Source of the DNA: Prevotella sp. UBA2711
Lineage (GTDB): Bacteria; Bacteroidota; Bacteroidia; Bacteroidales; Bacteroidaceae
Reading direction: 5' to 3'
Assembly: GCA_002354095.1 (NCBI GenBank)
Contig: DEKX01000037.1
Location: 66,525-130,524, forward strand
Length of the DNA: 64,000 bases
Shown piece after piece: positions 43,120 through 62,414 of the stretch. The notes under the pieces are model-generated. The model saw only the letters and a program-made list of their open reading frames with translations. It did not search any database and was not told where the DNA came from. The stretch's first letter is position 1, and each line of letters opens with the position of its first letter. The position numbers and the translations under genes are program-made.

Positions 43120-44837
43120 TACTGGTATTTGGAGGAACGACAGAAGGACGCAGGGCGGTGGAGGTGCTGGAGGAAGCAGGTTCACTCTATTATTATAGTA
43201 CCAAGACCGATGAGCAAGAGATTCACATGCATCATGGCATACACTTGGTAGGAGTGCTTGTGCGTGAAGCGATGATTGATATTTGTGAAAAACAGTCTAT
43301 CCGACTTATCATTGACGCTGCCCATCCATTTGCCCAGCATCTCCATCAGACTATTGCCGATGTTGCCGAGTCATTGGCTATTCCTGTTATCAGATACGAG
43401 CGTATCTATCCTCCCCGTGATACTGATGTTGAGTGGATTGATGACTATAGTCAGATTCCTCAGGATATTCATTCCCTATTAGCTACAACAGGCGTTCAGA
43501 GCATCCAGAAACTAAAACCTCTTGAACAACAGGGCATGAAGATCTACTACCGCATCCTGCCCCGTGAATCGTCTATCGATATGGCCTTACAACAAGGAGC
43601 TACCGAAGAACAGTTAATCTACTACGAAGACAGCAGTACCATTGAGATAGATGCTGATGCTATTTTATTGAAAGAGAGTGGTATTTCTGGCGGTTTTATC
43701 GAAAAGGTAAAAGCTGCCAAAGAAAAGGGCATGCGTACTATCGTTTTAAAACGTCCCCAACTCACCATTCCCAGTCCGCTATACTCCATTGTCAACGGCC
43801 CTCATGGGCTACGACGGGCGGTAGAAAGGTTATTGCCTGAGTTTTATCCGCTGAAGAGTGGACTGACTACGGGAACTTGTGCTACAGCGGCTGCTGTGGC
43901 AGCTACGCTCCGACTGCTGCATAACGAAACGCCCTCCGAGGTGCCCGTCCGTTTGCCTGATGGTGAGACCATCCATGTGTCTGTGGGATATGCCGACGGA
44001 TATGCCTATTGTATCAAAGAGGCAGGTGATGATCCTGATGTGACGGACGGCATAGAGGTGAGAGCGATGGTGGAACCGGCAGAGTCTTTTGAGATAAAAG
44101 GTGGCGAGGGGGTTGGTCGTTTCACACTCCCCGGTTTTGATTATCCTCCTGGTGAACCTGCCATCAATAAAGGTCCGCGACAGATGATTCGTGACAATAT
44201 CAAGGAACATGTCAGGGTGACTATTTCAGTGCCCCACGGAGCAGATATTGCCCACCGCACTTTCAATCCCCGACTAGGCATTGAGGGTGGTATCTCCATC
44301 ATCGGTGTGTCAGGCATTGTAAAACCCTTCTCCGAAGATGCTTTCATCGAGAGTATTCGTAAGTGTATGGAGGTGGCTCAGGCCAGCGGTACGGAAAGGG
44401 TGGTCATCAATAGCGGGGCAAAGAGCGAACGGTTTATCAAGGTGAAATACCCTGATCTCCCAGCGCAGGCTTTCGTGCAATATGGCAACTACATCGGGGA
44501 GACCCTGAAGATAGCCAACGAACTCAACATCCCTAAGGTCACGTTGTGCGTGATGATGGGCAAGGCTGTCAAATTGGCTGCCGGTCAGTTGGATACGCAT
44601 AGCAAGAAAACCACCATGGACTTATCCTTCATTCAACAGATGCTCCGAGAATCGGATATTCAGATGGATATCAGTGACATGACACTGGCTCGCGAATTAT
44701 GGGAACGGATACCGGCTCATCAGCTAAACGGCTTTGCATCCACCGTCATCATGCACTGTATGGAGCACTGCCGACCACTGCTTCCCCAAGGAGAACTAAC
44801 GATTTTATTAATAGACGAAAATGGCAAAATATACTGA
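43116..44837 (+). CDS. CbiJ(CobK)-CbiD fusion
   Basis: FGGTTEG, IDAAHPFA, KESG; then GLTTGTCATAA, KEAGDDPDVT, GISIIG. Confidence 0.93.
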   Translation: MILVFGGTTEGRRAVEVLEEAGSLYYYSTKTDEQEIHMHHGIHLVGVLVREAMIDICEKQSIRLIIDAAHPFAQHLHQTIADVAESLAIPVIRYERIYPPRDTDVEWIDDYSQIPQDIHSLLATTGVQSIQKLKPLEQQGMKIYYRILPRESSIDMALQQGATEEQLIYYEDSSTIEIDADAILLKESGISGGFIEKVKAAKEKGMRTIVLKRPQLTIPSPLYSIVNGPHGLRRAVERLLPEFYPLKSGLTTGTCATAAAVAATLRLLHNETPSEVPVRLPDGETIHVSVGYADGYAYCIKEAGDDPDVTDGIEVRAMVEPAESFEIKGGEGVGRFTLPGFDYPPGEPAINKGPRQMIRDNIKEHVRVTISVPHGADIAHRTFNPRLGIEGGISIIGVSGIVKPFSEDAFIESIRKCMEVAQASGTERVVINSGAKSERFIKVKYPDLPAQAFVQYGNYIGETLKIANELNIPKVTLCVMMGKAVKLAAGQLDTHSKKTTMDLSFIQQMLRESDIQMDISDMTLARELWERIPAHQLNGFASTVIMHCMEHCRPLLPQGELTILLIDENGKIY

Positions 44838-48679: not shown

Positions 48680-49681
48680 TTATGTCTTTATTACCAGGCG
48701 GTCACCCCGTATTTCCAACGGCATGGGAATATTATCCGTGAAGAGTTGTCCCGTACCCAGTCCTTGTGGCATACGGATATCAGGACCGTATATCTCCTGT
48801 GCCAGTCGGGCAATCGCATAAAGTCCCACATTGCTCTCCAACGCCGATGTAATCCACGAACCGATGCTCATATCACGTGCTATGTCCACCCATTCCCTGA
48901 CGCCCATCATACCACCATGCAACGAGGGTTTCAGTATGATGTAAGCAGGTCGGATGATGTTCAGCAACTGTCGTTTCTGGTCAGGGTCGTTCACCCCTAT
49001 CAGTTCCTCGTCGAGTGCAATACGCAGGGGTGCTTCCCGACAGAGTTCTGCCATGTCCGCCCACTGTCCTGCCTTGATGGGCTGTTCGATGGAGTGCAGC
49101 GCATATTGCGAGAGCAGTTCCAGTTTATACAGAGCCTCGTCAAATTTAAATGCTCCATTCGCATCCACGCGCAGTTCCAGTTCACGAGGTCCGAAGCGTT
49201 CACGAATCTTTTTCAGCAATTCCAGTTCTGCCTCGAAGTCGATGGCACCTATCTTCAGTTTGATACATCTGAACCCCTGTTCCAATTTCTGCTCGATGCG
49301 CTGTTGCATCTCGTCGAACGTACCCATCCACACCAGTCCGTTGATGGGAATGGAGAAGGCCTCGCCCTCCGTATCTTCCTTCTTACATCTTACATCATTC
49401 AGTGCCGTTTCCATACCAAAGAGCATCGAGGGATAGTCGCGCATTGTTTCATAGTCTATCTTCCCTGTTCGCTCCACGTCATCACAGAACGTCCTCAGTT
49501 TCTCACTATAGTCCGGTATGTCGTCACAACTCAACTGAGGCAATGGGGCACACTCCCCCACTCCCTTCCTGTTGCCATCCTCCAAATGCAACAGCCATAT
49601 CTTACGCTCCGTGTACACCCCTCGGCTCGTTCCAGCCGGTTGCTTAAAGTGCAGCACGCGCTCCTCTATCGATATCTTCAT
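48680..49681 (-). CDS. menC: O-succinylbenzoate synthase
   Basis: [36 protein letters not shown]. Confidence 0.92.
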
Positions 49682-50535
49682 GGGATTTTAGGATATTGGT
49701 CGAAATCGGGTTTACGTTTTTCCAGGAAAGCCTTACCACCCTCCTGCGCTTCATCCAGGAAGTAGTAGAGCATCGTCGCATCACCAGCCAACTGCTGAAT
49801 ACCAGCCTGTCCGTCCAGTTCCGCATTCAGTCCTGCCTTGATCATACGCAGGGCAATAGGACTGCGCTCCATCATTTCCTCTGCCCATGCCACACACTCG
49901 TCTTCCAACTGCTCCAGGGGCACCACCTTGTTCACCATACCCATTTCCAGAGCTTCCTGAGCCGTGTACTGTCTGCACATAAACCATATCTCGCGTGCCT
50001 TTTTCTGTCCTACGATACGAGCCAGATAACTGCTTCCGAAGCCCGCATCAAACGAACCCACCTTCGGACCCGTCTGTCCGAAGATAGCATTCTCCGAGGC
50101 AATCGTCAGGTCGCACACCAAATGCAACACGTGTCCGCCCCCAATGGCATAACCGTTCACCATCGCTATCACGGGCTTAGGCAGACGACGAATCTGCATC
50201 TGCACATCCAGCACACTCAGACGGGGCACGCCCTCATCATCCACATATCCGCCGCGCCCCTTCACGTGCATATCGCCACCCGAGCAAAACGCATGTTTCA
50301 CGTCAGCGAGCGATTTACCCTCCGGCACTTCCGACATAGCCCCCGTCAGCAGCACCACTCTGATCTGTTGCATCTCACGGCACATGGCGAAAGCCTGCGA
50401 CAGTTCCAGTGTTGTTTTCGGTGTAAACGCATTCCGGTAGTGCGCCCTATTAATAGTAATCTTCGCAATACCATGATATTCTTCGAAGAGAATTTCCTCG
50501 AATTTCCTAATCTCTTTCCATTCTCGTTGCATCAT
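49678..50535 (-). CDS. menB: 1,4-dihydroxy-2-naphthoyl-CoA synthase
   Basis: [31 protein letters not shown]. Start reassigned to MMQREW at 50535. Confidence 0.96.
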
Positions 50536-50650
50536 ATCTCTTTTATTTTTAGAATCTATGTGCAAAGGTACAAAAAAAAATCTAATTCTGTCATTTGGCT
50601 CGTTTTTATTCCCCCATTTGGCCATATTCCGTTCTGCCGTTTGTAGAAAT

Positions 50651-50682
50651 ATCCCTGCTAAGCGCCATTGCTTAACAGGGAT
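50651..50682. terminator. Hairpin terminator after the lysozyme-like gene
   Basis: ATCCCTG(c)TAAGC-gccatt-GCTTA(a)CAGGGAT. Confidence 0.6.
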
Positions 50683-50687
50683 TTTCA

Positions 50688-51137
50688 TTACTCATTTAAA
50701 ATTTCCCACGCCCTCGCCACATACGGTGCCAGTTCTTCACGTTGCCGGGTGGTCAGTCCGCACTCCATCGTTGCCATAGCCAGCACGATGTCGCACCACA
50801 CCACCTGCGTTTCCGCCTTCATCGGGGGCAGGGGTGTTTCAGGTGATAGTCCTGTCAGTCGGCACACCGTCTGCACGTAGGCGTTGATCACCCGTTCCCC
50901 TTCAGGGTCCCAACGTGCCACGATCTGCCTGATGGTTCGGCACCCATGCTTATTATAATAAGTACGTAGCAGACAAAGTGCAGCCCTGAATCCATATTCC
51001 ATTGTTTCAAACTGGGCGAAGTTCCTGTCTGTAGATGGCTTCACCTCCCCCTGCCAATTAATTTTCTCACTCTTAATAATATTCAGCGGATTATTGTTCC
51101 GAAGTCCACGTGGAAGTTTATTAATTTTTGTATTCAT
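50688..51137 (-). CDS. Phage-type lysozyme-like protein (RNNNP family, often labelled structural protein P5)
   Basis: [46 protein letters not shown]. Confidence 0.75.
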
Positions 51138-51209
51138 AATTTTTCTAATCGTATCTTCAGCACGCTTTCACAAAGCGAAGCGATTGAAAGAATTCTTCAA
51201 TTTTAAATT

Positions 51210-53669
51210 CTACAACATAATAGTACCTGTTTTGTGGAACAAAGCCTTCTGACTGCCCTTCTCTTCGCAAATTTTCTCTATCAGATGGTCGCGACACAGG
51301 CGCGTCACCTTCTTGCGAGCAGAGGCCTCACTACCCAGATTGAAGCAGCGAACGACGTCCTCGATGGTAAACTCATCAGGCAGACGATCAAAAGCCTCGT
51401 AGGTCTTCTGACGGCGCTGCACATTCACGCTGGCGTCCTTCAGCTTGTTGTCGAAATAGTTCTCGGCCATCGCACCAAAGTAGTGACGCTGACAGGCGTA
51501 TTGGATGTTCGTAATCAGCTCTGCCAGTCGCCAATCCACTTCATCCGTCTCAAACTCACCACACCAGTACTGTCCTTCCTGCTTCATCTGATCCCAGTGA
51601 CGCATCACAATAAACGGCGCAGCGAAGTTCAGGCCATGATAGGCACAGCGCTTCAGCAGCATCTCGTCAGCTTTCGAATCGTTCTCCTTGGCATCCTCCA
51701 TGCGACGTGCCGTCCAGTCATATAACTCGTCGACAATTTTGTCGACACTCAAGAGCCCCTTCGTCTTGTCCAGCTTCTCGGCCCACACCCTCAGGCGCTC
51801 GTCGCTGTCGTAGTCCACAACACTCTCGCGACTCATCATCTCAAAGTTGGTCGCAGGCAGAGGAATACAGGTCAGACGGGTTGCCAGTCCAGAACCAAAA
51901 TTCTGCTCGTTCACCATCTTCTTCAGCGCGATGGGCGTACCTGTGTAGATGAAGTTCCAAATCACGTAGAACTCCTGGAACACACTGTCTACATTCGAGT
52001 AGGCCTGACCGTCTTCCTCGTTGTGGAACGCCTTCAATTGCAGCGCCTGCTTGTCGATGTACGCGCCACCCTTCTGCAGCGACAGCGTGTTGTCCAGCTC
52101 CGTGTCGAACGTCAGCATGTGCAGCTGCATCGGTTCTCCGTCCACCTCCTCAACAGCATTCACCATGTCCTGAATAAACTGCGCATTACTGGTTCGTGCA
52201 GGGTGAATCCTAACCACCACCTTCGGCTTCTTGGGCTTCTCTTTATTGGCACCCTTCGTACGCATCTGCTCACGATAGGCATTGATCGCCTCTTTGCCAA
52301 TCTTATCAGCCGCCACGATGGGCGAAGCCAACAGTTTGAACAATCGCGTGGCAAAGCTCTTACCACTGGCAGGATCGCCAATAATCAACGTTGAATTATT
52401 CAGCCTGCGCAGCTCCTCAGGGCGATGGTAGAACCTGTAAGTACAGCGTGTCATCAAGGTCATCAGCAGACCTCCGCCTACAAACAGCGCCGCAGGATAC
52501 TGATTGCGCTTCAATCCCTTCGTAATATCCTTTATCAGCGGATACTCTTCAGCCAGAGCCTCGATCTCAGCGCCCCATTCCCACAATAGAGGGTCGATGT
52601 TTGAAGGCTGATGGCTGACATCAACTAATTTTTCACTTTTCACTATTCCCTTTTCACTCAAAATGCCACTAAGCATTTTACTCAGTCCTTTGGGTGGCTC
52701 CTTGCAGGCAGATTCCACGATGCTGCACAGTTCCTGCTCGCCCAGTCCCAGGCGAGGCATAATCTCCAAGAGCAGCTGCTTGTTGTTGTCGCAAATAGCC
52801 CTCAGGTTCACTGCCAACTGGTACAGTTTCACATTCCTCTCACCCTCCTGTGGCTCTCCACCATTCTGTTTCCACCACGCGTCAATGATCTCGCTGTACG
52901 GAATACCTTTGAATTTCTTTTCTGAACACGAATCTGTCGAATCTGACGAATCTTTTTCCTGTGCGCAGCTATTCGTGTGATTCGTGCAATTCGTGTTCGT
53001 TAAAAACTGCTCCGTGTTCGTTTCCTCCCAAGGCCTGTAGTGTTTGTTAGCCTTCTTCGCTCCAGCAGGCACTTGTTCCTGTTTCCTCATCACGCGTACC
53101 TTCAGCAGATTATACTCTTTCTCGCACTCCTCTGCCGTCATGGGTTCCTCGAAGAGGCAATCGTCCAGATAAGGCAGGTCTTCCTCACTGCCGCTGGTCG
53201 AGAATACCACCCGCTGCAAGTCCTTCGCGCTTGTGTCCATTTCCACTTTCAGAATCGTTGCCACGCGCACCTGATTCTCCAGTATTGTAGTGCCCCTGCG
53301 GCGCTCACAGACCAAGTGCCAACCTCCACTGGCCGAACGTTCGAGCATCTTCAGACCAATCTCGTCCCTTTTGCTAAGAATCAGTTCCTTCAGCTGTTGT
53401 GAGTGTTCTTTATCGTAGCAGTCTACATCGTGAAAGAAGTAACTGCCGATGTTATTACAGCCTGCAATCTGGCCATTCACATGACCTATGTTATAAGCCA
53501 GTTGCAGCAAGGCGGCCTTAGCCTTCTCGTCGCCCTGACGCGCCTTGTTCAGGTTTTCCAAATTCTGTTGCGAGCTGCGCAGCGCCATCAACTCGTCACG
53601 GTTCTTTACAGGGTGGGCAAACTTTCGCTTGTCCTTACCCTTGCATAAATATTCAATCCTGTATATCAT
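51210..53669 (-). CDS. Primase/helicase-like replication protein (VirE-N/BT4734-like + PriCT-like + DUF3987-like)
   Basis: HDVD...RSASGGWH primase-like region, GERNVKLYQLA helical domain, Walker A IIGDPASGKS, HTH-like C-terminus. Confidence 0.7.
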   Translation of the reverse strand: MIYRIEYLCKGKDKRKFAHPVKNRDELMALRSSQQNLENLNKARQGDEKAKAALLQLAYNIGHVNGQIAGCNNIGSYFFHDVDCYDKEHSQQLKELILSKRDEIGLKMLERSASGGWHLVCERRRGTTILENQVRVATILKVEMDTSAKDLQRVVFSTSGSEEDLPYLDDCLFEEPMTAEECEKEYNLLKVRVMRKQEQVPAGAKKANKHYRPWEETNTEQFLTNTNCTNHTNSCAQEKDSSDSTDSCSEKKFKGIPYSEIIDAWWKQNGGEPQEGERNVKLYQLAVNLRAICDNNKQLLLEIMPRLGLGEQELCSIVESACKEPPKGLSKMLSGILSEKGIVKSEKLVDVSHQPSNIDPLLWEWGAEIEALAEEYPLIKDITKGLKRNQYPAALFVGGGLLMTLMTRCTYRFYHRPEELRRLNNSTLIIGDPASGKSFATRLFKLLASPIVAADKIGKEAINAYREQMRTKGANKEKPKKPKVVVRIHPARTSNAQFIQDMVNAVEEVDGEPMQLHMLTFDTELDNTLSLQKGGAYIDKQALQLKAFHNEEDGQAYSNVDSVFQEFYVIWNFIYTGTPIALKKMVNEQNFGSGLATRLTCIPLPATNFEMMSRESVVDYDSDERLRVWAEKLDKTKGLLSVDKIVDELYDWTARRMEDAKENDSKADEMLLKRCAYHGLNFAAPFIVMRHWDQMKQEGQYWCGEFETDEVDWRLAELITNIQYACQRHYFGAMAENYFDNKLKDASVNVQRRQKTYEAFDRLPDEFTIEDVVRCFNLGSEASARKKVTRLCRDHLIEKICEEKGSQKALFHKTGTIML

Positions 53670-53674
53670 ACTGT

Positions 53675-53764
53675 CTACAGTGTTTGAAGGTCAGTAATAT
53701 AGAACATATTCTCATGGCGCTCAGCGTATGCGCCCACCGCAATAATTGTTACTAATGCTTCCAT
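53675..53764 (-). CDS. 29-aa small ORF
   Basis: MEALVTIIAVGAYAERHENMFYITDLQTL*; A-rich leader; fills the gap between neighbours. Confidence 0.45.
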   Translation of the reverse strand: MEALVTIIAVGAYAERHENMFYITDLQTL

Positions 53765-53785
53765 GTCGCTTTTAAATTATTAGGT

Positions 53786-54118
53786 TTAACAAAACTCGAT
53801 GAGGTCCAGTTCTTGTTCAATTAGGGCGTTCTTCGCATCCTGGTTGTGCTCATTGAGCAGCTCGATGACCTGCGCCGTGCAGGAATCCTTCGGAAAACTG
53901 CCGAACACCTTGATGCGCTCCATCGACTCCTTCACCCATCCCCACGGCAACTTCTTCACCATGCGGTCCTTCTCGCGCACTCGCGGCTGGCGGTTATACG
54001 CCTTGAAGGTTAAACGACCTGTGTTCTCGTCCACATACAGAACACCTTCCACTCGCTTGCCTGCGATGAGCTTTGTCATCAGCTCCAGGGCATCCAAAAT
54101 AAAAATGTACTTTTTCAT
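53786..54118 (-). CDS. Hypothetical protein, 110 aa
   Basis: Clean ORF co-oriented in the cassette. Confidence 0.7.
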   Translation of the reverse strand: MKKYIFILDALELMTKLIAGKRVEGVLYVDENTGRLTFKAYNRQPRVREKDRMVKKLPWGWVKESMERIKVFGSFPKDSCTAQVIELLNEHNQDAKNALIEQELDLIEFC

Positions 54119-54222
54119 AATCGATTCGAATTAGTGAGCTTTGGAAAGCGGGTTTTAGTTTGAGCTCAATTCGTACGTACACATTTCCACGCTCATCCTC
54201 CGACTCGGTTATTTTAAAATTG

Positions 54223-54492
54223 TTATTTGATAATTATTTCCTGCGTTCCCCTTTGGCGGACCACGCCACCGTTTTGCAGTCCGGCATTCTTCAGTCCGTC
54301 ACACATCTGCCAGTGGCGGCAACAGAACTGCTGACGTACCTTCAACTGCATTTTCTTACACGTACGCTCGCCGTCGTTCTCTACTTCCTTAAACTGGCAC
54401 GAGGCACACATCTTCTTCACTGTGATGCCATAGGCATTCACGCTAACTTCTGAATGTTTCATTGTTTGAAATCTAATTTGTTCTAACATCAT
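54223..54492 (-). CDS. Small Cys-rich, probably zinc-binding protein
   Basis: CASC..C..CC..W pattern; first gene below the -7 box at 54532-54539. Confidence 0.7.
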   Translation of the reverse strand: MMLEQIRFQTMKHSEVSVNAYGITVKKMCASCQFKEVENDGERTCKKMQLKVRQQFCCRHWQMCDGLKNAGLQNGGVVRQRGTQEIIIK

Positions 54493-54551
54493 TTTACCTG
54501 TTTAAGAATCCTTCATTTCTGATTACGCTGGCAAAGATAGAACAAAAAAAA

Positions 54552-54580
54552 GTGACGTACCTTACGAAAAAGTACGTCAC
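54552..54580. promoter_or_regulatory. Perfect 9-bp inverted repeat over the upstream promoter region
   Basis: GTGACGTAC-N11-GTACGTCAC. Confidence 0.65.
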
Positions 54581-54635
54581 GAACAAATCCCCGAACACAG
54601 GAACAAATAACCGAACAACTACCCGAAAACTAAAC

Positions 54636-55100
54636 CTAAGTAGCCTTGAAAATATTCAAAAATCGCTTACCGACATTGATTCTTCGCTTAGCCTCCGTCG
54701 TGTCACAATCAACGAATGTCCAGTCAGGGAAACGACCCGTAAAGGTGTTTTGCTTCTTGTTGATGCTGTCTTCCGACGGCAGGCGCTCAACGTCCGCCGC
54801 TTTCAGATAGGCGATAAACGATGCCGGCGTATTGAAATAAGGCATGTCGTTAGTATGATTCATCACCTCCATCACCCACGTATAGTCATACAAATACTTC
54901 AGCACGCCCTCGTCCCACAATCCCTGCACAGCCATCCCTACGCGCACGTCGGTTGCTGCCGTGTTATCGTCGCCGGTCTCTCTGATGCAGTCATTCGTCT
55001 CATCCACATGCACCTCTCCCTTATCGATACAGAGGTTTACCACCTTGTTGTCATGGACATCGATATACGACCCCTGTACATAAACCTTATTCCCTGCCAT
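54636..55100 (-). CDS. Hypothetical protein, 154 aa
   Basis: Clean ORF overlapping the upstream gene's end. Confidence 0.75.
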   Translation of the reverse strand: MAGNKVYVQGSYIDVHDNKVVNLCIDKGEVHVDETNDCIRETGDDNTAATDVRVGMAVQGLWDEGVLKYLYDYTWVMEVMNHTNDMPYFNTPASFIAYLKAADVERLPSEDSINKKQNTFTGRFPDWTFVDCDTTEAKRRINVGKRFLNIFKAT

Positions 55101-55377
55101 AGCTCACCATATTATTATTGTGAATATCGTTGTAGTTGCCAGCCACCTGCAGCACATGCACCTCCGTCGTCTGTCGCCGCAATGACTCGTTCTCGTTCCT
55201 TAGCCTTTCGTTCTCGGACATCACCTCCGTCACAGCATCAATAGCATGGAAGAATCCATCCATCAACTCGGCTTTCTCCATCATTTGCTCGCGCTCCCGT
55301 TCGAGCGCACGACGCGCATCGCGTGTCGCCTCCTTCATCTCTTCAGCATTCCATCTTTGTTTCATGATGTTTCTCAT
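55087..55377 (-). CDS. Hypothetical coiled-coil protein, 96 aa
   Basis: ERERE/ENERLRNENESLR heptads; below the -7 box at 55447-55454. Confidence 0.7.
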   Translation of the reverse strand: MRNIMKQRWNAEEMKEATRDARRALEREREQMMEKAELMDGFFHAIDAVTEVMSENERLRNENESLRRQTTEVHVLQVAGNYNDIHNNNMVSYGRE

Positions 55378-55455
55378 TTTAATTATTTTTAGTTATACAT
55401 TATATGATTGCCAAGGCATAGCATCCTGTCTTTTGCAATTCAAATGCAAAAATAA

Positions 55456-55490
55456 TAGTAGGGTGTACTATAAGTCAGGACACCCTACTA
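55456..55490. promoter_or_regulatory. Perfect 11-bp inverted repeat abutting the -7 box
   Basis: TAGTAGGGTGT-N13-ACACCCTACTA. Confidence 0.7.
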
Positions 55491-55519
55491 AACTTTAACC
55501 TCTTTTAAGATTTTAATCC

Positions 55520-55605
55520 CTTAACCGTTAACTGTTAACCCTTAACCCTTAACCGTTATATGTCCTTCAGCCTTCATCCATCAGACATCTTACATCAAAC
55601 ATCCT
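55520..55605. repeat. Two adjacent heptamer arrays downstream of hsdR
   Basis: STTAACY x5 (55520-55554), then ccttcag/ccatcag/acatctt-type x6 (55564-55605). Confidence 0.8.
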
Positions 55606-55625: not shown

Positions 55626-58600
55626 TCATGCCGTTATTGAAATAACCTGATGGATTTCTTTGACGAAATTCTTTAGGCTGACAAAATTATCTCCAAAGGT
55701 ACCTCGCCAATTATATGCCTTTAATGGATACTCCATGAAGTTCCTAACCTCTATATCGCCATTTACGCTAACATAGTCGAGAATATTCTTCAGGTATCTT
55801 TCTTGTTCTGACGTCAGGTTGTTGTCGTTGATAAACTTCTGATATATCTGGAGGGCTTTCTTTCTGTCTATGCCATTGACGACACGGATGAATGCAGCCA
55901 CATTTGTTTTATATGGATGTCCCTCTGCCAGTTCGTCAAACTCTTCACGACTGCCAAGTTCTTCAAAGAATACTCGCTCCAGTTCTGCGAAATCCGCTGG
56001 TGTCAACTGCTCAAACTGCTGTATCTTCTGAAGTGTAGGATTACCTGTATTTTGTGCCAGATAATCTACCACTCTTTGCTTGTAAGAAGTACGGATAACA
56101 GGATCTTCTTCACCCTCTTCTATCAGGTATGGGTCTTCAATGTCAATAATAAACTTCTCTTTCTTTCTGGCCTCTTCAAGCAGCTTTATCAAGTCTCTCA
56201 GTTCTGTCCTTACGCTTTCAAGACTGTCAAGGCTCTCATTCGCCCAGAATGGTGGTTGCTGAACCTCTCGGATGGTGTCTAAATGCTTCATCACAGCAGG
56301 TATTGAGCCCTTCTTTTCCAGATGGGCAGCAACATTTACTACAACCTGCCTATACTGTCCCACACGAACTGTAGAGTCGATATGAGCCAACTGCAGATGA
56401 AGCATGATGACGTCGAATTTCTTGGCAGATTCATCATCATCATCTTGTGGTATCAGCTTCCCTATTTCCTTCAGGCGCAAAACATCTACCTCTGAGAGAT
56501 ATGTCCATTTTTCCTTGTCTCGGAATGGCTCTATGATGTTCCAATATGGGCGAGCATCCTTTCGCTCCTTCACAATGCCGTTTACCTGTTGGTGCAACAG
56601 CACCTTCAGGTCGTCATGCATCTTCTTGTCAAAAGCCTTCTCCTGATGCTCGGCACTTTGCAGTTCCTTTGCTATGTCCAGTCGCAGAGAGAAGAGTCTT
56701 TCTGTCAATGACTTGCTGTTTGAAGCATCTATGCCATCAGGTTTCTTTGAGAAATAATCGAAGTTGCCACACCAGTCAAAGATATAGAAGCATTCCTTGT
56801 CCTTACCCTCTCCGAAGATGTTAGGACAAAGGCGAGTTCCTCGACCTATCATCTGCTCAAACTTGATCTTCGACTTCACAATCTTGAAGAAGACCAGATT
56901 CAATACTTCTGGCACATCAATACCAGTGTCAAGCATATCCACACTGACAGCTATCTGAGGCATGCTTTCTGCAACCTTGAATTTTGCTATCAGCTTATCA
57001 TGATAGTTCACCTGATTGTCTATCAACTGGCAATAGTCTGCCCCACGATTGGGGAATAGTGCATGGAAGCGTTCCACTATTCTCTCAGCATGCTTGTGAT
57101 TATAGGCAAAGATGATCGTCTTTCCTATATCTTCGCCACTCTTAATCTTCAAGCCGTTCTCCATCAGTTCTGACAATACATTGTCTATCGTATCGTCATT
57201 GATGAGGTAACGGAATATCTCGTTTCCTTCTATGTCACGATGGTATTCCGCATTGGGGTCAATGCCCTTCAGCATCTTCTCGTAGTCCCACACTTTTTCC
57301 AGTTCCTCGCGCTGTTCTGGAGTCAGTTCGTCATACTTGATGCCCCTATTTATCATCTTCGAGAAATGACGCTTTGCCTTGTAAGCCACAAGGTATCCAT
57401 CATTAACTGCCTCGTCAAAGGTATATTCAAAGTTCGGCTCATTCTCCAGCTCCAGCAATCGGAAGGTATTCTTGTCTATCTCGTCACGAGGTGTTGCTGT
57501 CAGACCTATCAACAACGAATCAAAGTATTGGAAGATGGCTCCATACTTTCCAAATACCGATCTGTGGGCCTCATCTATGATGATCAGGTCAAAATGTCCT
57601 ACGCTGAACTTCACATCATACTCATTGATGTAGTTGATCATCGTCTGGTAGGTGGAGAAAATGAATCGAGCCTCTAAGTCTGGCTCATCATCGTCTGACA
57701 GTGATGCCATCGACTCACTGGGCAACAGCTTTTCGAAATTGCCCCTTGCCTGACCAACCAATTCTGTTCTGTCGGCAAGGAACAACACATGCTTTATCCA
57801 GTCGTTATTTGACAGCACCTTGCAAAGCGAAATGCTCACTCGCGTCTTTCCTGTACCAGTGGCCAGCACCAGCAATCCACGACGATGCTTCATGTTGAGC
57901 CATTCCACCAGGCTCTTGATGGCAGTCTTCTGATAAGGTCTGTCAGTAATTGTCTCGTCTATGGTCATGTCCTTGATGTCAGCCCTGCCACGTTTCTGCA
58001 TGATATATTCCAGGTCGTCATGACTATGGAATGAGATGACTTCTCTGTCAGGATATCCCAAGCCGTCAATCACCTTGGTGACATAACCATTGGTATAGTA
58101 TATGACAGGTCGGATACCATATTTCTTTTCCAGACAGTCAGCATACAGTATGGCCTGCGCTCTGCCTTTTCCTGCATTCTGTATGGTACTCTTGGCCTCT
58201 ACGACTGCCAAAGGTTTTCCACCTCTGCTAAACAGTACATAGTCGCAATAGCCCTTACCGCTTGGATTGGGCATGCCTTCCACCTCAACCTCAATGCAAG
58301 CCTTTCCACCTTGTATGTCGCCCTTTACTGTCAGGATGTCCCACTTTGCTTCATTCAGCATATAGTCAATGAGACACCTTCTTGTCACTGCCTCGCTGGC
58401 AAGCGACTCCTTTGGCGTTTCTACAGGCTTTACAGGATTGTCTATCACCTCCTTGGGAACGCTGTCAACAACCTCTTGCGACACTTGTGGCTCAGGAGAT
58501 GTTAACACCTGCATTCCAGGCAGCACCTGTGGCACCAAAGTGGCGTCAAAGGCTACGATGTTCTTTATCGCCTTCCAACGATACAGAAAGCCCTCCACTA

Positions 58601-58967
58601 CATAGAATAGAGCCCTCAAGCAGATGAAGGCATCATTCTTCTTGATCTCTTGTGTCCCTGTATGAGAAGCATAGTTGCCAAACTTCTTGACGGTATAGAT
58701 ATTCTTCTGAAACTCCCAGTCATAGTTGATGAAGGCATCCATCTCCGGATGCTTCAGCATATCGTTAAGTGATTCCTTCTGCTCCACCGTGGCTGATGCC
58801 ATAGCCAGATGGTGCCTTACCAGCCATTCCAATGCCTTACGGGCATTAGTAGCAGACTCCTCTGGGTAAGAGTTCTGAAATATTTCTGCCTTATCGCAAT
58901 ACGCATGCAGTTTGCTGAAGCTCGGAATATGCTGAGCTAATAGTTGGATAAAGTCGAAATTCTTCAT
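55626..58967 (-). CDS. hsdR: Type I restriction endonuclease subunit R (EcoAI/EcoEI-like)
   Basis: DYVL..VVEAK nuclease motif, LATGTGKT, DEAHRS, GLTATP, MLDTGIDVP, QMIGRGTR. Confidence 0.95.
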   Translation of the reverse strand: MKNFDFIQLLAQHIPSFSKLHAYCDKAEIFQNSYPEESATNARKALEWLVRHHLAMASATVEQKESLNDMLKHPEMDAFINYDWEFQKNIYTVKKFGNYASHTGTQEIKKNDAFICLRALFYVVEGFLYRWKAIKNIVAFDATLVPQVLPGMQVLTSPEPQVSQEVVDSVPKEVIDNPVKPVETPKESLASEAVTRRCLIDYMLNEAKWDILTVKGDIQGGKACIEVEVEGMPNPSGKGYCDYVLFSRGGKPLAVVEAKSTIQNAGKGRAQAILYADCLEKKYGIRPVIYYTNGYVTKVIDGLGYPDREVISFHSHDDLEYIMQKRGRADIKDMTIDETITDRPYQKTAIKSLVEWLNMKHRRGLLVLATGTGKTRVSISLCKVLSNNDWIKHVLFLADRTELVGQARGNFEKLLPSESMASLSDDDEPDLEARFIFSTYQTMINYINEYDVKFSVGHFDLIIIDEAHRSVFGKYGAIFQYFDSLLIGLTATPRDEIDKNTFRLLELENEPNFEYTFDEAVNDGYLVAYKAKRHFSKMINRGIKYDELTPEQREELEKVWDYEKMLKGIDPNAEYHRDIEGNEIFRYLINDDTIDNVLSELMENGLKIKSGEDIGKTIIFAYNHKHAERIVERFHALFPNRGADYCQLIDNQVNYHDKLIAKFKVAESMPQIAVSVDMLDTGIDVPEVLNLVFFKIVKSKIKFEQMIGRGTRLCPNIFGEGKDKECFYIFDWCGNFDYFSKKPDGIDASNSKSLTERLFSLRLDIAKELQSAEHQEKAFDKKMHDDLKVLLHQQVNGIVKERKDARPYWNIIEPFRDKEKWTYLSEVDVLRLKEIGKLIPQDDDDESAKKFDVIMLHLQLAHIDSTVRVGQYRQVVVNVAAHLEKKGSIPAVMKHLDTIREVQQPPFWANESLDSLESVRTELRDLIKLLEEARKKEKFIIDIEDPYLIEEGEEDPVIRTSYKQRVVDYLAQNTGNPTLQKIQQFEQLTPADFAELERVFFEELGSREEFDELAEGHPYKTNVAAFIRVVNGIDRKKALQIYQKFINDNNLTSEQERYLKNILDYVSVNGDIEVRNFMEYPLKAYNWRGTFGDNFVSLKNFVKEIHQVISITA

Positions 58968-59004
58968 ATCACTTAATTTTTAGTCAAACCATCACTTAAC
59001 GTTT

Positions 59005-60147
59005 TCATTCAAACCAATACTGCATTCTTGATGCAAGCAATGTTTCTAGGTCTTTTATCGTAGAACTGATTTGCGCCTTCTGCTGCTCAATCAACTCTAT
59101 CCTCTTTGCAAATTCTTGCTGAAGGGAGAGAGGAGGGATAATTATTTTGGTCTTTTTGATTTCTCCTAAATGCAAATTGGGAACACCAATACCTTTTAAT
59201 GAGTCATCAAATTGTTGTTTTGTATATGGATTATTAATTGCATAATGCAAATACTCAGGCATATTGTTTGTTTTAGGTCTTAACAAAGCTAAACTTACAT
59301 AAATATCAAATATATCATCGGTATCTACTACAGCACATATACCCGTTGTCCCATTTTTACACAACAGTATATCCCCACGTTTGGGAGCTATTCTTTTGTG
59401 TAATTCGCTATGAAGCTCATAAGGAATAAATTTAATGTTTCCCCAATCAATATAGCCGCTTACGACATCCTTAGCAGATAAAAATTTGACACCATTAATT
59501 TTATCTTCTGTATATTGGGGAGTCTGATGAGTTCCATCTTTTATAAATTCACAAGTGTCGTTCAATGTTTGTACCGAGAATGCTGTATTATGTAAATCTC
59601 CAAACATATCATAGAATATGCTTTGAGCAAGAGCATCAAGGTCACTCAACTGAGCCTTCTTCAGACTTATCAGCTCATTTATCTTATCCAACTCAGAAAC
59701 AATAGATTGCTGCTCAGAGAGAGGGGGAACGGGAAACTCTACGCTATTAAGTTTTTTTGCAGATAGATGTTTGACCGTTACGAATGGCGTTTCATCTTCT
59801 ATGTGTTTTAGAATAATCTGCATCTGATAATAGATAAACCTTTCCAACATAGTACTATCAGCTGCATATATTTTGCACACTCGTTGATTTAACAAAGCCT
59901 TTTCAGATTTCCAAGGCGCTATATTAAATTCGCCATCCATTCCAATGAGAAGGTCACCATTTTCAACATAATATCCTTCAGGAATAGCTCCTTTGTAATA
60001 CGTTTCAGAATAGCCTCGAACGACGTCTCTTATTCTTATCAATTGTGGATAATTGTCGTCTTCGCAAAAGAAAGAAGAATCAAACGCAAATCCATATTGA
60101 ATCCCGCAAACCTCTCCCAATTTCTTATATGTCCACCCTTCTCTCAT
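59005..60147 (-). CDS. hsdS: Type I R-M specificity subunit
   Basis: Two TRDs with conserved PVPPLSEQQSIV and IIPPLSLQQEF spacers; visibly AT-richer than flanks. Confidence 0.93.
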   Translation of the reverse strand: MREGWTYKKLGEVCGIQYGFAFDSSFFCEDDNYPQLIRIRDVVRGYSETYYKGAIPEGYYVENGDLLIGMDGEFNIAPWKSEKALLNQRVCKIYAADSTMLERFIYYQMQIILKHIEDETPFVTVKHLSAKKLNSVEFPVPPLSEQQSIVSELDKINELISLKKAQLSDLDALAQSIFYDMFGDLHNTAFSVQTLNDTCEFIKDGTHQTPQYTEDKINGVKFLSAKDVVSGYIDWGNIKFIPYELHSELHKRIAPKRGDILLCKNGTTGICAVVDTDDIFDIYVSLALLRPKTNNMPEYLHYAINNPYTKQQFDDSLKGIGVPNLHLGEIKKTKIIIPPLSLQQEFAKRIELIEQQKAQISSTIKDLETLLASRMQYWFE

Positions 60148-60635
60148 TCTGTATCTCCGTTGGTTTCTTTAAACTCTGCAATCCACTCTCTCACTTTTGC
60201 CTGCAACAAATCCTTGTCTGGCAAATAGAGTTGATATTGCGTAGCATAAATATTCGTCAACACTGCTGACGAATTTGACAAACACTGTTTACCAATTTCC
60301 TTTTGAATTGGGTAACCACTGTTTACCGAATTTGAATAAACCATAAAGAAACGTCTGCACAACTTAAGCGTTTCTTCAGACCATCCATTTCCAAAACGCG
60401 CAGAAAGCCTGTTGGACAAGGTTTTCAGTACCTGTTTTCCATATTCAGCACGTGCCTTACCCTGCTGTTCGTCTTCAACAATATATTGTCCAATGTGGAA
60501 TTTGGTATAAACCTCTGCCACATTGATTGTCGTAGCAACATGTTTGCGAGCCTGATTTATCAGTGCAGATACCTTCTCAAAGAGGGCATCTATACGAGCT
60601 GTTTCTTGTATTTCGTTCTTCTGTGCCATCATCAT
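60144..60635 (-). pseudogene. YhcG/DUF1016-family gene with an in-frame internal deletion (nuclease domain missing)
   Basis: DUF1016 N-terminus (IGQYIVEDEQQG..RAEYG..LS..L..RFG.GWS) joined directly to the family tail IYATQYQLYLP; only 163 aa. Confidence 0.75.
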
Positions 60636-62149
60636 TTCTCTTCCAACATCTTATACAGTTCACTATAACCCTTCAGATATTCTCCTTCTGTCTTTTCAAG
60701 ACGAGTAAGGATGTCTGCAACAGGTTCGTACTCTACCTTCTCCCTCTCTATCTCCTTGTACTTGTTGATAGACAGGTCGTAGTTGTTCTGGCGAATCTCT
60801 TCCACAGGAACAAAGAAGCTCTGCTCCTTGCGACTGCGAGACTCTTCTGCCTTCAGATTGTTGTAGCGAGCTACCACATCAGGAATATCGTTCTCGCTGA
60901 TAGGACTTCGCTTATCGTCAAGACTGAAGCCATCGGCCTTCATGTCGTAGAACCACACCTTGTCCGTGCCACCACTATTTGTCTTTGAGAAGACCAGAAC
61001 GGCAGTACTTACTCCAGCGTATGGCTTGAAGACGCCACTTGGCATAGAGATGACAGCCTTTAGTTGCTGGTTATCTACAATCTCTTGACGAATGGCGATG
61101 TGGGCCTTGCTGGTGCCAAACAATACGCCATCAGGAACAATGCTGGCACAACGGCCTCCGACCTCCAAAGAGCGAACAAACTGAGCAAGGAACAAGAGTT
61201 CTGTCTTACTCGTATTGGCATAGGCAAGAATCTTCTTGTTTACATTGCCCTTGTCCAGGCTGCCTGCAAAAGGAGGATTTGCCATGATGAGCGTATAGCA
61301 ACTCTGATCATCATTCTGTTCTGACAAAGAGTCGCGCCAAGCAAGTTCTGGAGCAGTAATGTCATGAAGAAGAAGGTTCATGGCACCTATTCGAAGCATC
61401 GTCTGGTCTGTATCGTAACCATTAATCATCGATGTCTTCATGTGATGCACTTCTTCTGCTGCATACAAGGCCGACCCATAATGCTCCTTGATATACTTGA
61501 CTGCTTCCACAAGGAATCCTGCGCTACCCATTGCTGGGTCGCAGATATAGTCTTTGGGGGTTGGCTCCATCATTTCCACAATCATGCGGATGATGTGGCG
61601 AGGAGTACGGAACTGACCATTAGTGCCTGATGCAGCCATCTTGCCAAGGATGTACTCATAGACATCGCCCATAGCATCACGATTGTTCATGTCGAGGGCA
61701 TCCACACCATCAACCACCTTTGTAAGGGTGCGAGCATTGGGGATAAGGAATATGGCAGACTTCATATAGCGACTGTAGGCGCTCTCCTCACCCGTTCCGA
61801 TATGCTTGATAAACTCAAACACACTCTGGCGAACAATCTTGAACATATTGTCAGAGCCAAAGTTCTTAAACACATGCCAGCGAAGATTCTCGTATGGAAC
61901 ACCCTTCTTCTCTTCGTCAGAAACAGCCTCAGGATTCACCCATAGCTGTCCGTCGAGGAATGTGGGGTTTTGGACTTCTGCGCCCCAGTCTCGAGCATTC
62001 TCCTCTTCTTGCAGCTGCTTGTCATCTAGCAACTTCATGAAGAAGATATAGGTCATCTGCTCCAATACTGTTATGGGATTAGTAATACCTGCCACAAAGA
62101 AGGTATCCCAAATCTGGTCAATCTTATTCTTTATCTCGCCTGTAATCAT
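60632..62149 (-). CDS. hsdM: Type I R-M N6-adenine methyltransferase
   Basis: GQFRTPRHI, DPAMGSAGFL, NPPF, VPDGVLFG. Confidence 0.96.
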   Translation of the reverse strand: MITGEIKNKIDQIWDTFFVAGITNPITVLEQMTYIFFMKLLDDKQLQEEENARDWGAEVQNPTFLDGQLWVNPEAVSDEEKKGVPYENLRWHVFKNFGSDNMFKIVRQSVFEFIKHIGTGEESAYSRYMKSAIFLIPNARTLTKVVDGVDALDMNNRDAMGDVYEYILGKMAASGTNGQFRTPRHIIRMIVEMMEPTPKDYICDPAMGSAGFLVEAVKYIKEHYGSALYAAEEVHHMKTSMINGYDTDQTMLRIGAMNLLLHDITAPELAWRDSLSEQNDDQSCYTLIMANPPFAGSLDKGNVNKKILAYANTSKTELLFLAQFVRSLEVGGRCASIVPDGVLFGTSKAHIAIRQEIVDNQQLKAVISMPSGVFKPYAGVSTAVLVFSKTNSGGTDKVWFYDMKADGFSLDDKRSPISENDIPDVVARYNNLKAEESRSRKEQSFFVPVEEIRQNNYDLSINKYKEIEREKVEYEPVADILTRLEKTEGEYLKGYSELYKMLEEK

Positions 62150-62331
62150 ATCATGTTTTAAATTAGTACTTGCAAAGATACATAATATCTTTGAGAAAAA
62201 ATCTTTTTCTACAAAATTTTTACATTAATTATTTAGAAACAGCCTTCTTCCCTCTTCCTTCTTCCCTCTCACATCGGCCCAAGGCTTGCGAAGGAAACTG
62301 ATAATTGTTTCTCCGTAAAAATCGTTAATTT

Positions 62332-62380
62332 TGCACTATCTAAGTGCGTTTTTTTTAATTTTGTGCACTACTTTAGTGCA
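62332..62380. promoter_or_regulatory. Tandem operator-like palindromes in the hsdM/AAA divergent region
   Basis: TGCACTA-tct-AAGTGC at 62332 and perfect TGCACTA-ctt-TAGTGCA at 62364. Confidence 0.5.
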
Positions 62381-62414
62381 ATTTTACTATATTTGCAGCA
62401 AAAATATAACGATT

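Follow-up and report, generated by a model that had tools for sequence, protein, structure and literature searches.

A primase and lysin gene module in rumen Prevotella, possibly the replication arm of an integrase-less, satellite-like defence island

Main finding

We analyzed a module of about 5 kb from Prevotella sp. UBA2711, a rumen Prevotella with a 3.1-Mb genome. It lies at positions 50688 to 55490 of the window, which is the whole stretch of DNA that was analyzed (64,000 nucleotides). The reading we favor, held at about even confidence, is that the module serves a satellite-like defence island without an integrase as its arm for replication and control. The module contains seven co-oriented ORFs on the minus strand in two units. 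Unit 1 contains the genes for a 96-aa and a 154-aa protein. Unit 2 contains the genes for an 89-aa protein, a 110-aa protein, an 819-aa primase, and a 149-aa lysin, together with a 29-aa remnant. An earlier note on this DNA had described seven co-oriented genes in two transcription units, and all of these ORFs were found again at their coordinates, on the minus strand.

Insertion site and island content

The locus is not a core locus and sits in an island of at least 15 kb between menD and menB. The core gene menB flanks the island (49678 to 50508, minus strand; ECH_1, E 3.4e-76). In six of nine relatives, menD and menB are directly adjacent and 90 to 170 bp apart. Here menD opens contig C30, and menB is on contig C24, preceded by the module. 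These positions support an insertion between the two genes. Between menB and the end of contig C24 are, in order, the module, the type I R-M operon, and genes of the AAA_14 and WYL families. None of the 80 related loci adjoins menB. A repeat search found no repeats bracketing the module; the left end of the island lies beyond the assembled contig, and any att sites or target duplications there would thus fall outside the searched DNA. The true unit exceeds 50688 to 55490, and the upstream R-M genes are part of the same island.

The R-M operon is upstream cargo (55626 to 62149, minus strand). It contains hsdM, a DUF1016_N ORF, hsdS, and hsdR, as assigned by Pfam matches. The left part of the island encodes an AAA_14 ATPase (62331 to 63587, plus strand; PF13173). 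The related island L045 has a 92% identical homolog at its left extremity, and the genes between that homolog and the module differ from those in Prevotella sp. UBA2711.

The two nearest large ORFs upstream of the module at 40 loci include HsdR, ResIII, Eco57I, Methylase_S, and DUF1016/YhcG families. They also include SLFN-type ATPase, WYL, RhuM, and Dcm families. On the downstream side, 33 loci gave 66 ORFs, which are housekeeping genes of various kinds. Four of the approximately eight R-M systems in the genome are directly upstream of a module, and an R-M system precedes all four modules that have assembled upstream DNA (six modules in the genome). The module is the conserved downstream end of these islands, and the upstream arm consists of variable R-M or other defence-type genes.

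Primase-helicase

The largest gene (51210 to 53669, minus strand) encodes an 819-aa predicted AEP primase of a divergent BT4734-like type, fused to a DUF3987-type P-loop ATPase/helicase. A 19-member alignment at 24 to 58% identity shows no exception to D81, D83, D145, K437, and E524. These residues belong to AEP motifs I and III (FFHDVDCYD with D81 and D83, and D145) and to Walker A and B (GDPASGKSF with K437, and E524). The earlier note had likewise called this gene a primase/helicase. Motif II reads SGGWH, with H118 where the family consensus has K. BT4734-like primases are treated as a separate AEP family (PMC5862659, PMC11724360), and a lysine replaces the usual motif II histidine in them (PMC11724360).

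The 819-aa protein gave no match to PF08800 at E ≤ 0.01 and stays below the Pfam gathering threshold. It scores 17.0 bits on DUF3987 (PF13148), for which the cut-off is 27. Five paralogs (on contigs C37, C34, C25, C7, and C39) pass PF08800 and align end to end with it. The C39 paralog also passes PF13148 with 47.7 bits. The hypervariable linker of the primase is of low complexity and varies in length among homologs. It contains an in-frame imperfect palindrome of 9-nt repeats (52924 to 52998, minus strand).

Cell wall hydrolase

The last gene of unit 2 (50688 to 51137, minus strand) encodes a 149-aa endolysin-like muramidase. Residues 7 to 101 align to 7q47_A (PDB 7q47, "Endolysin," E 2.5e-9), and the protein matches phrog_873 ("endolysin," E 1.6e-35). 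The earlier note had described the gene as lysozyme-like. A signal peptide was not found in the protein, and no holin or membrane protein was seen in the module. Four other modules in the genome encode lysin paralogs that are 69 to 93% identical. An M15 peptidase takes the lysin slot in 32 of 54 related loci.

Small proteins of unit 2

The first gene of unit 2 (54223 to 54492, minus strand) encodes an 89-aa zinc-ribbon-like protein. All 39 of 39 homologs keep its four cysteines (C29, C32, C45, and C58) and also N19, S31, G41, R43, and W61. A protein of this kind is found at the same position in 45 of 80 loci. It had no family match in the Pfam, PHROGs, NCBIfam, or PADLOC profiles.

The 110-aa protein (53786 to 54118, minus strand) is the most conserved accessory gene product. 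Its gene is directly upstream of the primase gene or an SSB-like gene in 63 of 80 loci. Structure prediction of the small ORFs, as proposed in the earlier note, gave models for this protein and for the 154-aa protein; neither matched a fold in PDB. The 110-aa model (pLDDT 90.8) contains a helix, five strands, and a long helix, and it had no fold match in PDB or BFVD.

The 29-aa ORF (53675 to 53764, minus strand) had been counted as a gene. It is instead the remnant of an SSB-like gene of 95 to 97 aa from which about 68 codons have been deleted in frame. At least 10 loci have the intact ORF, whose start and end correspond to the N- and C-terminal halves of the remnant. In PDB, the top four matches to the intact ORF are SSB proteins without exception, and all four are weak (E 0.17 to 1.9). 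We infer that the copy at 50688 to 55490 is partly decayed.

Unit 1 and the direct-repeat array

Unit 1 encodes a 96-aa coiled-coil protein (55087 to 55377, minus strand), for which all matches to coiled-coil families are below threshold. Homologs with 78 to 80% identity were found in 3 of 80 loci, where they likewise overlap the 154-aa gene. The 154-aa protein (54636 to 55100, minus strand) is a candidate sequence-specific DNA-binding regulator or origin binder. Its C-terminal 100 aa or so are conserved in 16 loci. The AlphaFold model has a pLDDT above 90 from residue 50, and a search of it against PDB gave no fold match.

Five direct repeats, T[GT]TTC[GC], form an array at 54578 to 54629 (minus strand) with spacings of 12, 12, 8, and 12 nt. 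The array is iteron- or operator-like. Nowhere else in the 3.1-Mb genome do five of these motifs cluster within 60 nt; the expectation for TGTTC[GC] is 0.04 motifs per 60 nt. The array is kept in loci L043, L045, L068, and L069, and other repeats are found where the 154-aa homolog differs. Across the 16 loci, the kind of repeat matches the cluster into which the 154-aa protein falls by sequence. Because the array, and not a palindrome, covaries with a protein, it is the better regulatory candidate. The [96-aa, 154-aa] unit plausibly controls unit 2, and to this extent the regulatory cascade proposed earlier may stand, with its palindromic gates set aside. Direct repeats upstream of a promoter would be equally expected for an origin and for an ordinary transcription factor.

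Hairpins and promoters

TAnnTTTG is the Bacteroidetes-type promoter box. A -7 box of this type was read from the sequence upstream of unit 1 (55447 to 55454, minus strand), and the 5' leader downstream of it is conserved in L043, L045, and L069. The unit 2 box, TATCTTTG, is at 54532 to 54539 (minus strand), and TAnnTTTGC is invariant there in eight of eight aligned loci. The earlier note had placed a perfect inverted repeat just upstream of each box. Both repeats are present, and they are perfect in their 11-bp and 9-bp cores only.

Hairpin 1, with its T-rich tail, is terminator-like (55456 to 55490, minus strand). This inverted repeat is 136 nt downstream of the hsdR stop codon and has 14-nt arms that are 93% complementary, including the 11-bp core. 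Its RNA fold is -20.9 kcal/mol, with a z of about -4.1 versus shuffles. Hairpin 2, followed by T8, is the predicted intrinsic terminator of unit 1 (54544 to 54580, minus strand). The terminator scan gave 12 pairs and the tail TTTTTTTT. Its inverted repeat (54552 to 54580) has 12-nt arms that are 92% complementary, including the 9-bp core, and folds as RNA at -18.0 kcal/mol (z of about -4.2 versus shuffles). In four relatives, the 3' arm carries an A-to-G change, and pairing is kept solely as G·U. Since G·U wobble pairing works only in RNA, hairpin 2 probably acts as RNA. Hairpin 3, recognized by its RNA fold at approximately 50646 to 50686 (minus strand), would be the terminator of unit 2 and the right-hand end of the module. 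The paralogous modules on C25, C37, and C7 conserve it, and the C7 copy carries a compensatory change. Homology among the paralogs ends about 40 nt past the lysin stop codon. The terminator scan called hairpin 2; hairpins 1 and 3 were not called, yet both are stable folds with T-rich tails after stop codons.

All three hairpins are best read as terminators; hsdR, the 154-aa gene, and the lysin gene each have one at the 3' end. The reasons are their T-runs, their 3'-end position after stop codons, and, for hairpin 2, the pairing kept by G·U. The earlier note had taken the first two to gate the promoters in a regulatory cascade, which would make them operators. They do lie 2 to 13 nt upstream of the TAnnTTTG boxes, where a bound protein could influence initiation. 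This proposal is very unlikely in our estimate. Each palindrome comes soon after a stop codon and has a T-run behind it, and the lysin gene is followed by a third. The wobble-only pairing of hairpin 2 in four relatives also argues against operators. So do the conservation of hairpin 1 in L043 only, one of the three loci that share unit 1, and the tracking of protein identity by the direct repeats.

Paralogs and distribution

Counting paralogous cassettes, as had been suggested, gave six modules in the genome. Their primases are just 24 to 69% identical. In a survey of the genus, 64 of 121 genomes carry the module, with one to at least eight copies each. With its insertion between menD and menB, its six paralogs, and its patchy, multicopy distribution in the genus, the locus is not the conserved single-copy core locus that the earlier note had considered as the opposite case. 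Gene order is preserved in 80 loci from many species, and some related loci are without the hydrolase or small genes. About one-tenth of the copies listed in the genus have internal stops.

We retrieved at least 7,942 primase homologs from a 90% library and at least 1,249 clusters at 50% identity. Among the genomes sampled, members of the close subfamily occur only in a single rumen Prevotella/Xylanibacter genus. The family is nearly missing from known phages, with one 4-kb fragment; it was not found in plasmids, and IMG/VR contained one contig. This scarcity counts against a currently mobile episome, which should have left more traces.

Searches for mobility genes

No capsid or packaging families were found in the Pfam, PHROGs, and NCBIfam searches, and Phage_integrase had no match on the six module-bearing contigs. 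The earlier observation that capsid and integrase genes are missing is thus confirmed for these profiles and contigs. The five PF00589 matches in the genome are on C1, C11, C28, C9, and C19, none of which carries a module. Resolvase (PF00239) had no match in the genome. We identified no recombinase candidate or relaxase gene. The terS, cpm, sid, psu, cos-type, and capsid-size functions were not detected with Pfam, PHROGs, or NCBIfam; two module proteins (154 aa and 110 aa) are without a fold match.

Interpretation

In the favored reading, the 154-aa protein would bind the five direct repeats, which lie past the stop codon of its gene and before the unit 2 promoter. This binding would control unit 2 expression or mark an origin for the primase-helicase. 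The island might then replicate as an episome or amplify in place, much as phage satellites or cryptic replicons do, and the hydrolase may help in release or transfer. The invariant AEP and Walker residues and the SSB-like gene in relatives support a replication-type reading.

A bolder proposal is that the modules mark a class of mobile defence islands that is new, present in Prevotella and in other Bacteroidales as well. They would replicate with their own initiator-repeat pair and AEP primase-helicase and carry R-M or other defence cargo. They would relocate without a tyrosine or serine recombinase, using either one of the fold-orphan proteins (the 154-aa protein, the 110-aa protein, or the recurrent proteins of about 290 aa and about 430 to 480 aa) or the primase-polymerase itself. 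We consider this unlikely.

The module may alternatively be an anti-phage system, which we judge somewhat unlikely. Phage DNA replication would be sensed or disturbed by the primase-helicase together with the SSB-like protein and the small proteins, and the hydrolase would be an abortive-lysis effector. The consistent adjacency to R-M and other defence-type genes fits this, since defence genes accumulate in islands. BT4734-like ("VirEN") primases are reportedly associated with CRISPR-Cas and defence reverse transcriptases (PMC11724360). The distribution is also patchy, multicopy, fast-diverging, and pseudogene-rich, like that of defence genes, and the hydrolase slot is retained despite the change of enzyme family. 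However, six module proteins (without the 29-aa remnant) and the intact SSB-like homolog matched none of the 5,027 models of PADLOC-DB 2.0. Only the neighboring AAA_14 gene matched, as candidate PDC-S01. The module has no holin, signal peptide, or membrane protein that could deliver the hydrolase to the cell wall. Replicons, and not known defence systems, usually combine a primase-helicase and an SSB with a dedicated DNA-binding protein and its cognate repeats.

It is unlikely that the module is what is left of an old prophage, plasmid, or conjugative element, now without function and kept by chance or by hitchhiking with the addictive R-M genes. Such an origin would explain the loss of about 68 codons from the SSB-like gene in this copy, the stop codons in about one-tenth of the listed family members, the missing hydrolase or small genes at some loci, and the lack of a recombinase on the module contigs. 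Against it, the primase and ATPase catalytic residues are invariant at 24 to 58% identity, and gene order is held across 80 loci in a wide range of species. None of the 39 homologs of the zinc protein has lost any of the four cysteines, the repeats covary with the 154-aa protein, and the hairpin changes are compensatory. Together these observations indicate purifying selection.

A host-domesticated apparatus for cell-to-cell exchange, with the hydrolase opening the wall in concert with DNA handling, has been hypothesized for a Bacteroides neighborhood of DNA-binding protein, small membrane protein, amidase, and VirE genes (bioRxiv 10.1101/494179), and locus L023 has HU-HIG and DUF6486 genes a few kb upstream of a homologous module, but this is highly improbable here, as the module has no membrane protein or secretion component and the idea in the source paper is itself hypothetical.

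Comparison with known systems

The lysin resembles the 7Q47 and phrog_873 endolysins in sequence over the catalytic domain. It differs in that its gene stands alone, without a holin or other lysis-cassette genes.

The 819-aa protein shares its two-domain layout with the BT4734-like (VirE_N, PF08800) AEP and DUF3987/VirE proteins of Bacteroidales. It differs from them in its motif II histidine and in its PF08800 and PF13148 scores.

The Bacteroides neighborhood contains genes for an HU-like protein, a DUF6486 membrane protein, an N-acetylmuramoyl-L-alanine amidase, DUF4248, and VirE/DUF3987 (bioRxiv 10.1101/494179). It is also visible in gene lists of B. thetaiotaomicron (PMC10434189). Both systems have a recurrent, multicopy primase-helicase by a wall hydrolase, often near variable loci. 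In contrast, the Prevotella accessory genes (154-aa, zinc, 110-aa, and SSB-like) have no Pfam family, and the hydrolase is 7Q47-like or M15 instead of Amidase_2. The Prevotella window contains no HU, DUF4248, or membrane peptide.

P4-like elements, PICIs/SaPIs, and PICMIs are likewise small islands with a primase-helicase and specific repeats beside the replication genes. They resemble the module in having no capsid genes, in carrying defence cargo, and in occurring as several diverged copies per genome. DUF3987 is also mentioned in passages of the PICMI papers. Unlike these satellites, the Prevotella module has no integrase, no detected packaging-hijack genes, and no known helper phage. Its binding specificity is apparently in the separate 154-aa protein and not in a Rep helicase, and a peptidoglycan hydrolase is a fixed member of the module.

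Layout of the module and its setting

The source genome (G000) contains 3.1 Mb in 50 contigs, and source names on homologs point to rumen Prevotella/Xylanibacter. The window covers positions 66525-130524 of contig C24, and the module lies at 50688-55377 of the window. Its seven ORFs are co-oriented, as the earlier note had it; all are on the minus strand and encode proteins of 96, 154, 89, 110, 29, 819, and 149 aa. A type I R-M operon (hsdM, a DUF1016_N ORF, hsdS, and hsdR; 55626-62149) lies upstream and is co-oriented with the module. Beyond it, further upstream, are a divergent AAA_14 ATPase gene and a WYL/WCX regulator. The genes menB, menC, and menE lie downstream of the module. Of DUF1016 (YhcG-type nuclease family), the 163-aa ORF between hsdM and hsdS (60144-60635) encodes the N-terminal domain alone, and DUF1016/YhcG proteins recur upstream of related modules.

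The longest ORF for menB encodes 336 aa (49678-50688) and starts at the base where the lysin gene ends. The true start is probably near 50508-50520, because the MenB frames of relatives are 274 to 305 aa; this would leave a spacer of ~170 nt with hairpin 3 (see below) and a TAccTTTG box. A CbiJ/CobK-CbiD fusion of 573 aa is encoded at 43116-44837, inside a cobalamin-synthesis gene group. A tRNA scan of the window found none, and an Rfam scan of the window gave one sub-threshold match and none that was credible.

Copies and insertion sites

The genome contains six modules (C24, C37, C34, C25, C7, and C39), with primases that are 24 to 69% identical. This count of paralogous cassettes, which the earlier note had proposed, is not that of a single-copy core locus. 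The family was found in 64 of 121 genomes of the genus, with 1 to at least 8 copies each, and the rest of the order gave weak matches only. Stop codons interrupt about a tenth of the copies, among those listed.

In 6 of 9 relatives examined, menD and menB are adjacent. Here, menD lies 485 bp from the start of contig C30, and the module precedes menB. None of 80 related loci lies beside menB. The comparison shows that the chromosomal site of the islands differs between species.

The left end of the island in the window lies in unassembled DNA. C24 ends in a 160-bp dispersed repeat (G000:C24:131474-131633, just past the window), which elsewhere precedes unrelated genes and was not taken as the left end. 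It holds a promoter-like box and a leader, and its copies on C21, C20, and C44 are 92 to 96% identical. On the menD side, a short match to the 3' end of the lysin gene with its hairpin is part of a repeat family dispersed over many contig ends, and it is therefore not an island end. A MITE-like dispersed element is present 3' of menD (G000:C30:1-485). It has inverted CACAGAAATC-type arms, is flanked by TTCATAG heptamer arrays, and adjoins a 35-aa lipoprotein-like ORF. It also occurs at C7:43735-43844 and at contig ends of C25, C21, C48, C20, C36, and C37. In the C7 module, the DUF5675 and lysin genes are separated by a spacer that matches a 110-nt piece of this element at 100% identity. An empty site was sought for the C34 island; in the closest relative, the ThiF-Tex interval has a different gene content, and a clean junction therefore cannot be defined.

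Cargo and polarity of the islands

An R-M system was present upstream of all four modules with assembled upstream DNA: a type I system on C24, an MmeI-like one on C34, and type III systems on both C37 and C39. The genome has about eight R-M systems, including these four; the type III systems on C36 and C48 have no adjoining module. For 40 related loci, the two large ORFs closest to the module on its upstream side include HsdR/ResIII/SWI2_SNF2, Eco57I, Methylase_S, DUF1016/YhcG, and SLFN-type ATPases, together with WYL/WCX, RhuM, Dcm, and many proteins without a family. Two further contexts also have a defence-type upstream side. The control was a tally of 66 ORFs on the downstream side, taken from 33 of these loci. 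They encode assorted housekeeping proteins (e.g., SAICAR synthase, chorismate synthase, EPSP synthase, and H+-PPase), and R-M families are absent from the listed tally. Homology among the paralogs stops ~40 nt past the lysin stop, which makes the hydrolase end the border of the island. These comparisons show that the module forms one end of the islands, fixed and polar, and that R-M and other defence-type genes occupy the other arm.

At the far left of one related island (L045) is the same AAA_14 gene, with 92% identity. The right end carries the same module, but the genes in between are different, which would fit an exchange of the cargo in the middle.

Hairpins between the transcription units

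Hairpin 1 (55456-55490), with a T-rich tail, lies 136 nt past the hsdR stop. Hairpin 2 (54552-54580) contains 12 pairs and a T8 tail and was called by a terminator scan. Hairpin 3 (about 50646-50686) is directly 3' of the lysin stop. After each of the three comes the TAnnTTTG box of the next unit. In 4 related loci, a G in the 3' arm of hairpin 2 can pair only as G·U, a pairing available to RNA but not to DNA. The post-lysin hairpin is retained in the paralogs, with a compensatory change in C7. Hairpin 1 was found in only 1 of 3 loci having the same unit 1.

With stop codons upstream, T tails, and a third hairpin after the lysin gene, each hairpin would end a transcription unit, and we read all three as intrinsic terminators, not operators. 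The earlier note had described two palindromes gating promoters. Both inverted repeats are real, but the T tails, G·U pairing, and compensatory change speak for terminators in place of the operator role. A heptamer array (TTAACCG/TTAACCC, 5 to 6 copies; 55513-55558) lies between the hsdR stop and hairpin 1.

Direct repeats and the 154-aa protein

Five copies of T[GT]TTC[GC], spaced by 12, 12, 8, and 12 nt, lie at 54578-54629, after the stop of the 154-aa gene and before hairpin 2. No other cluster of five such motifs within 60 nt was found in the whole 3.1-Mb genome. The first ~60 nt past this stop were compared across 16 loci with a 154-aa homolog. Most have two to five direct repeats, and one (L080) has none. 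The repeat sequence tracks the sequence cluster of the 154-aa protein. The window and L043, with 154-aa proteins 89% identical, have the repeat TTGTTCGG, which is also found in L068, L045, and L069. L037, L103, and L070 (47 to 80% identical within the group) have TTCCGAA. L044, L075, L109, and L050 (51 to 85%) have GTCGGAC, and L046, L047, and L057 (64 to 68%) have CTACA or CTGCAAC types. The zinc and 110-aa proteins are 86 to 95% identical between the TTGTTCGG and TTCCGAA groups, so it is the 154-aa protein, not either of these, that the repeats follow. We infer that the 154-aa protein binds the direct repeats. The comparison shows that the module contains a putative protein-and-repeat pair whose specificities appear to have diversified together.

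Structure prediction covered the 110-aa and 154-aa proteins. The C-terminal 100 residues of the 154-aa protein gave a confident model matching no known fold. The confident models of both proteins had no fold match in the PDB or BFVD, and profile searches against PDB sequences also gave no match. A ~420- to 480-aa protein without a Pfam family is encoded upstream of many modules (L037:4169-5617; homologs in L039, L049, L051, L097, and L098) and, in the source genome, at L018:12120-13394 and L015:11012-12307. At least on C39, its C terminus is homologous to the 154-aa protein. An orphan protein of ~290 aa is often encoded before the 154-aa homolog.

Primase-helicase and small genes of unit 2

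The 819-aa protein contains FFHDVDCYD (AEP motif I), SGGWH (motif II), and GDPASGKSF (Walker A). Residues D81, D83, D145, K437, and E524 are invariant across it and 18 homologs (24 to 58% identity). The copy in the window falls below Pfam thresholds; its 5 paralogs pass BT4734-like_N, and 1 of these also passes DUF3987. The family has at least 7942 homologs in a 90% library and 1249 clusters at 50% identity. The low-complexity primase linker (TNTNCTNHTNS...DSSDSTDS) is encoded by an in-frame imperfect palindrome of 9-nt repeats (52924-52998), and its length and sequence are hypervariable across homologs.

The four cysteines of the zinc protein are invariant in 39 of 39 homologs. The 110-aa protein was present at 63 of 80 loci, and its model had very high confidence (pLDDT 90.8). 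The 29-aa ORF matches ~16 residues at the start and ~13 at the end of a 95- to 97-aa ORF that is intact in at least 10 loci; ~68 codons were therefore lost in frame. The best four PDB matches of the intact ORF are all SSB proteins, but weak. At L114:8650-9324, a 224-aa protein is encoded directly upstream of the 110-aa homolog, and by eye its C terminus may resemble sigma-70 region 4.

Cell wall hydrolase

The 149-aa protein matches endolysin 7q47 and phrog_873. In 54 related loci, the hydrolase slot encodes Peptidase_M15_3 (32 of 54), the 149-aa type (~13), or DUF5675 (3). The wall-hydrolase role would be retained while the enzyme family changes. Lysin paralogs lie at C24:117215-117661, C25:17433-17855, C37:12998-13435, and C7:43280-43705. 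The lysin proteins of four modules are 86 to 93% identical, versus 24 to 69% for the primases. This high lysin identity suggests shuffling or exchange of modules, or gene conversion, among elements.

Mobility and possible roles

No tyrosine-recombinase match was found on any module contig and no serine recombinase in the genome, which agrees with the earlier description of the element as integrase-less. A search for bracketing repeats around the module gave only chance-level matches of 13 to 19 nt. A phage or plasmid origin was rejected: the primase family was found in one 4-kb fragment among 50,697 phage records, in no plasmids, and in one IMG/VR contig.

The gene content fits the control and replication arm of a replicon: it includes a candidate specific DNA binder and its repeats, a primase-helicase whose catalytic residues are intact, an SSB, and small proteins of nucleic-acid type. 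Because the islands are patchy, multicopy, mosaic, often decayed, and at varied sites, they would fit a mobile or formerly mobile element with defence cargo. The module might itself be an anti-phage defence system, since BT4734-like primases occur in defence contexts (PMC11724360). We consider this unlikely; PADLOC had no model matching any module protein tested. That the module is an inert remnant is still more doubtful, being weakened by the conservation pattern.

The primase family was described in PMC5862659 and PMC11724360 and a related Bacteroides neighbourhood in bioRxiv 10.1101/494179, with no function given. We found no paper assigning primase-helicase modules a function, and literature searches (DUF3987, BT4734, DUF4248, and satellites) turned up no description of these islands. 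Such modules belong to the commonest unexplained gene neighbourhoods in Bacteroidales. The protein-and-repeat pair opens a cassette of unknown function to binding, replication, and induction experiments. If these putative mobile elements replicate or move, they would explain the exchange of restriction systems among rumen and gut Bacteroidales. The module has no integrase or packaging genes and so falls outside the phage satellites. These are nevertheless its nearest functional analogy, and islands that replicate or move would extend the known satellites and islands by a type without a recombinase.
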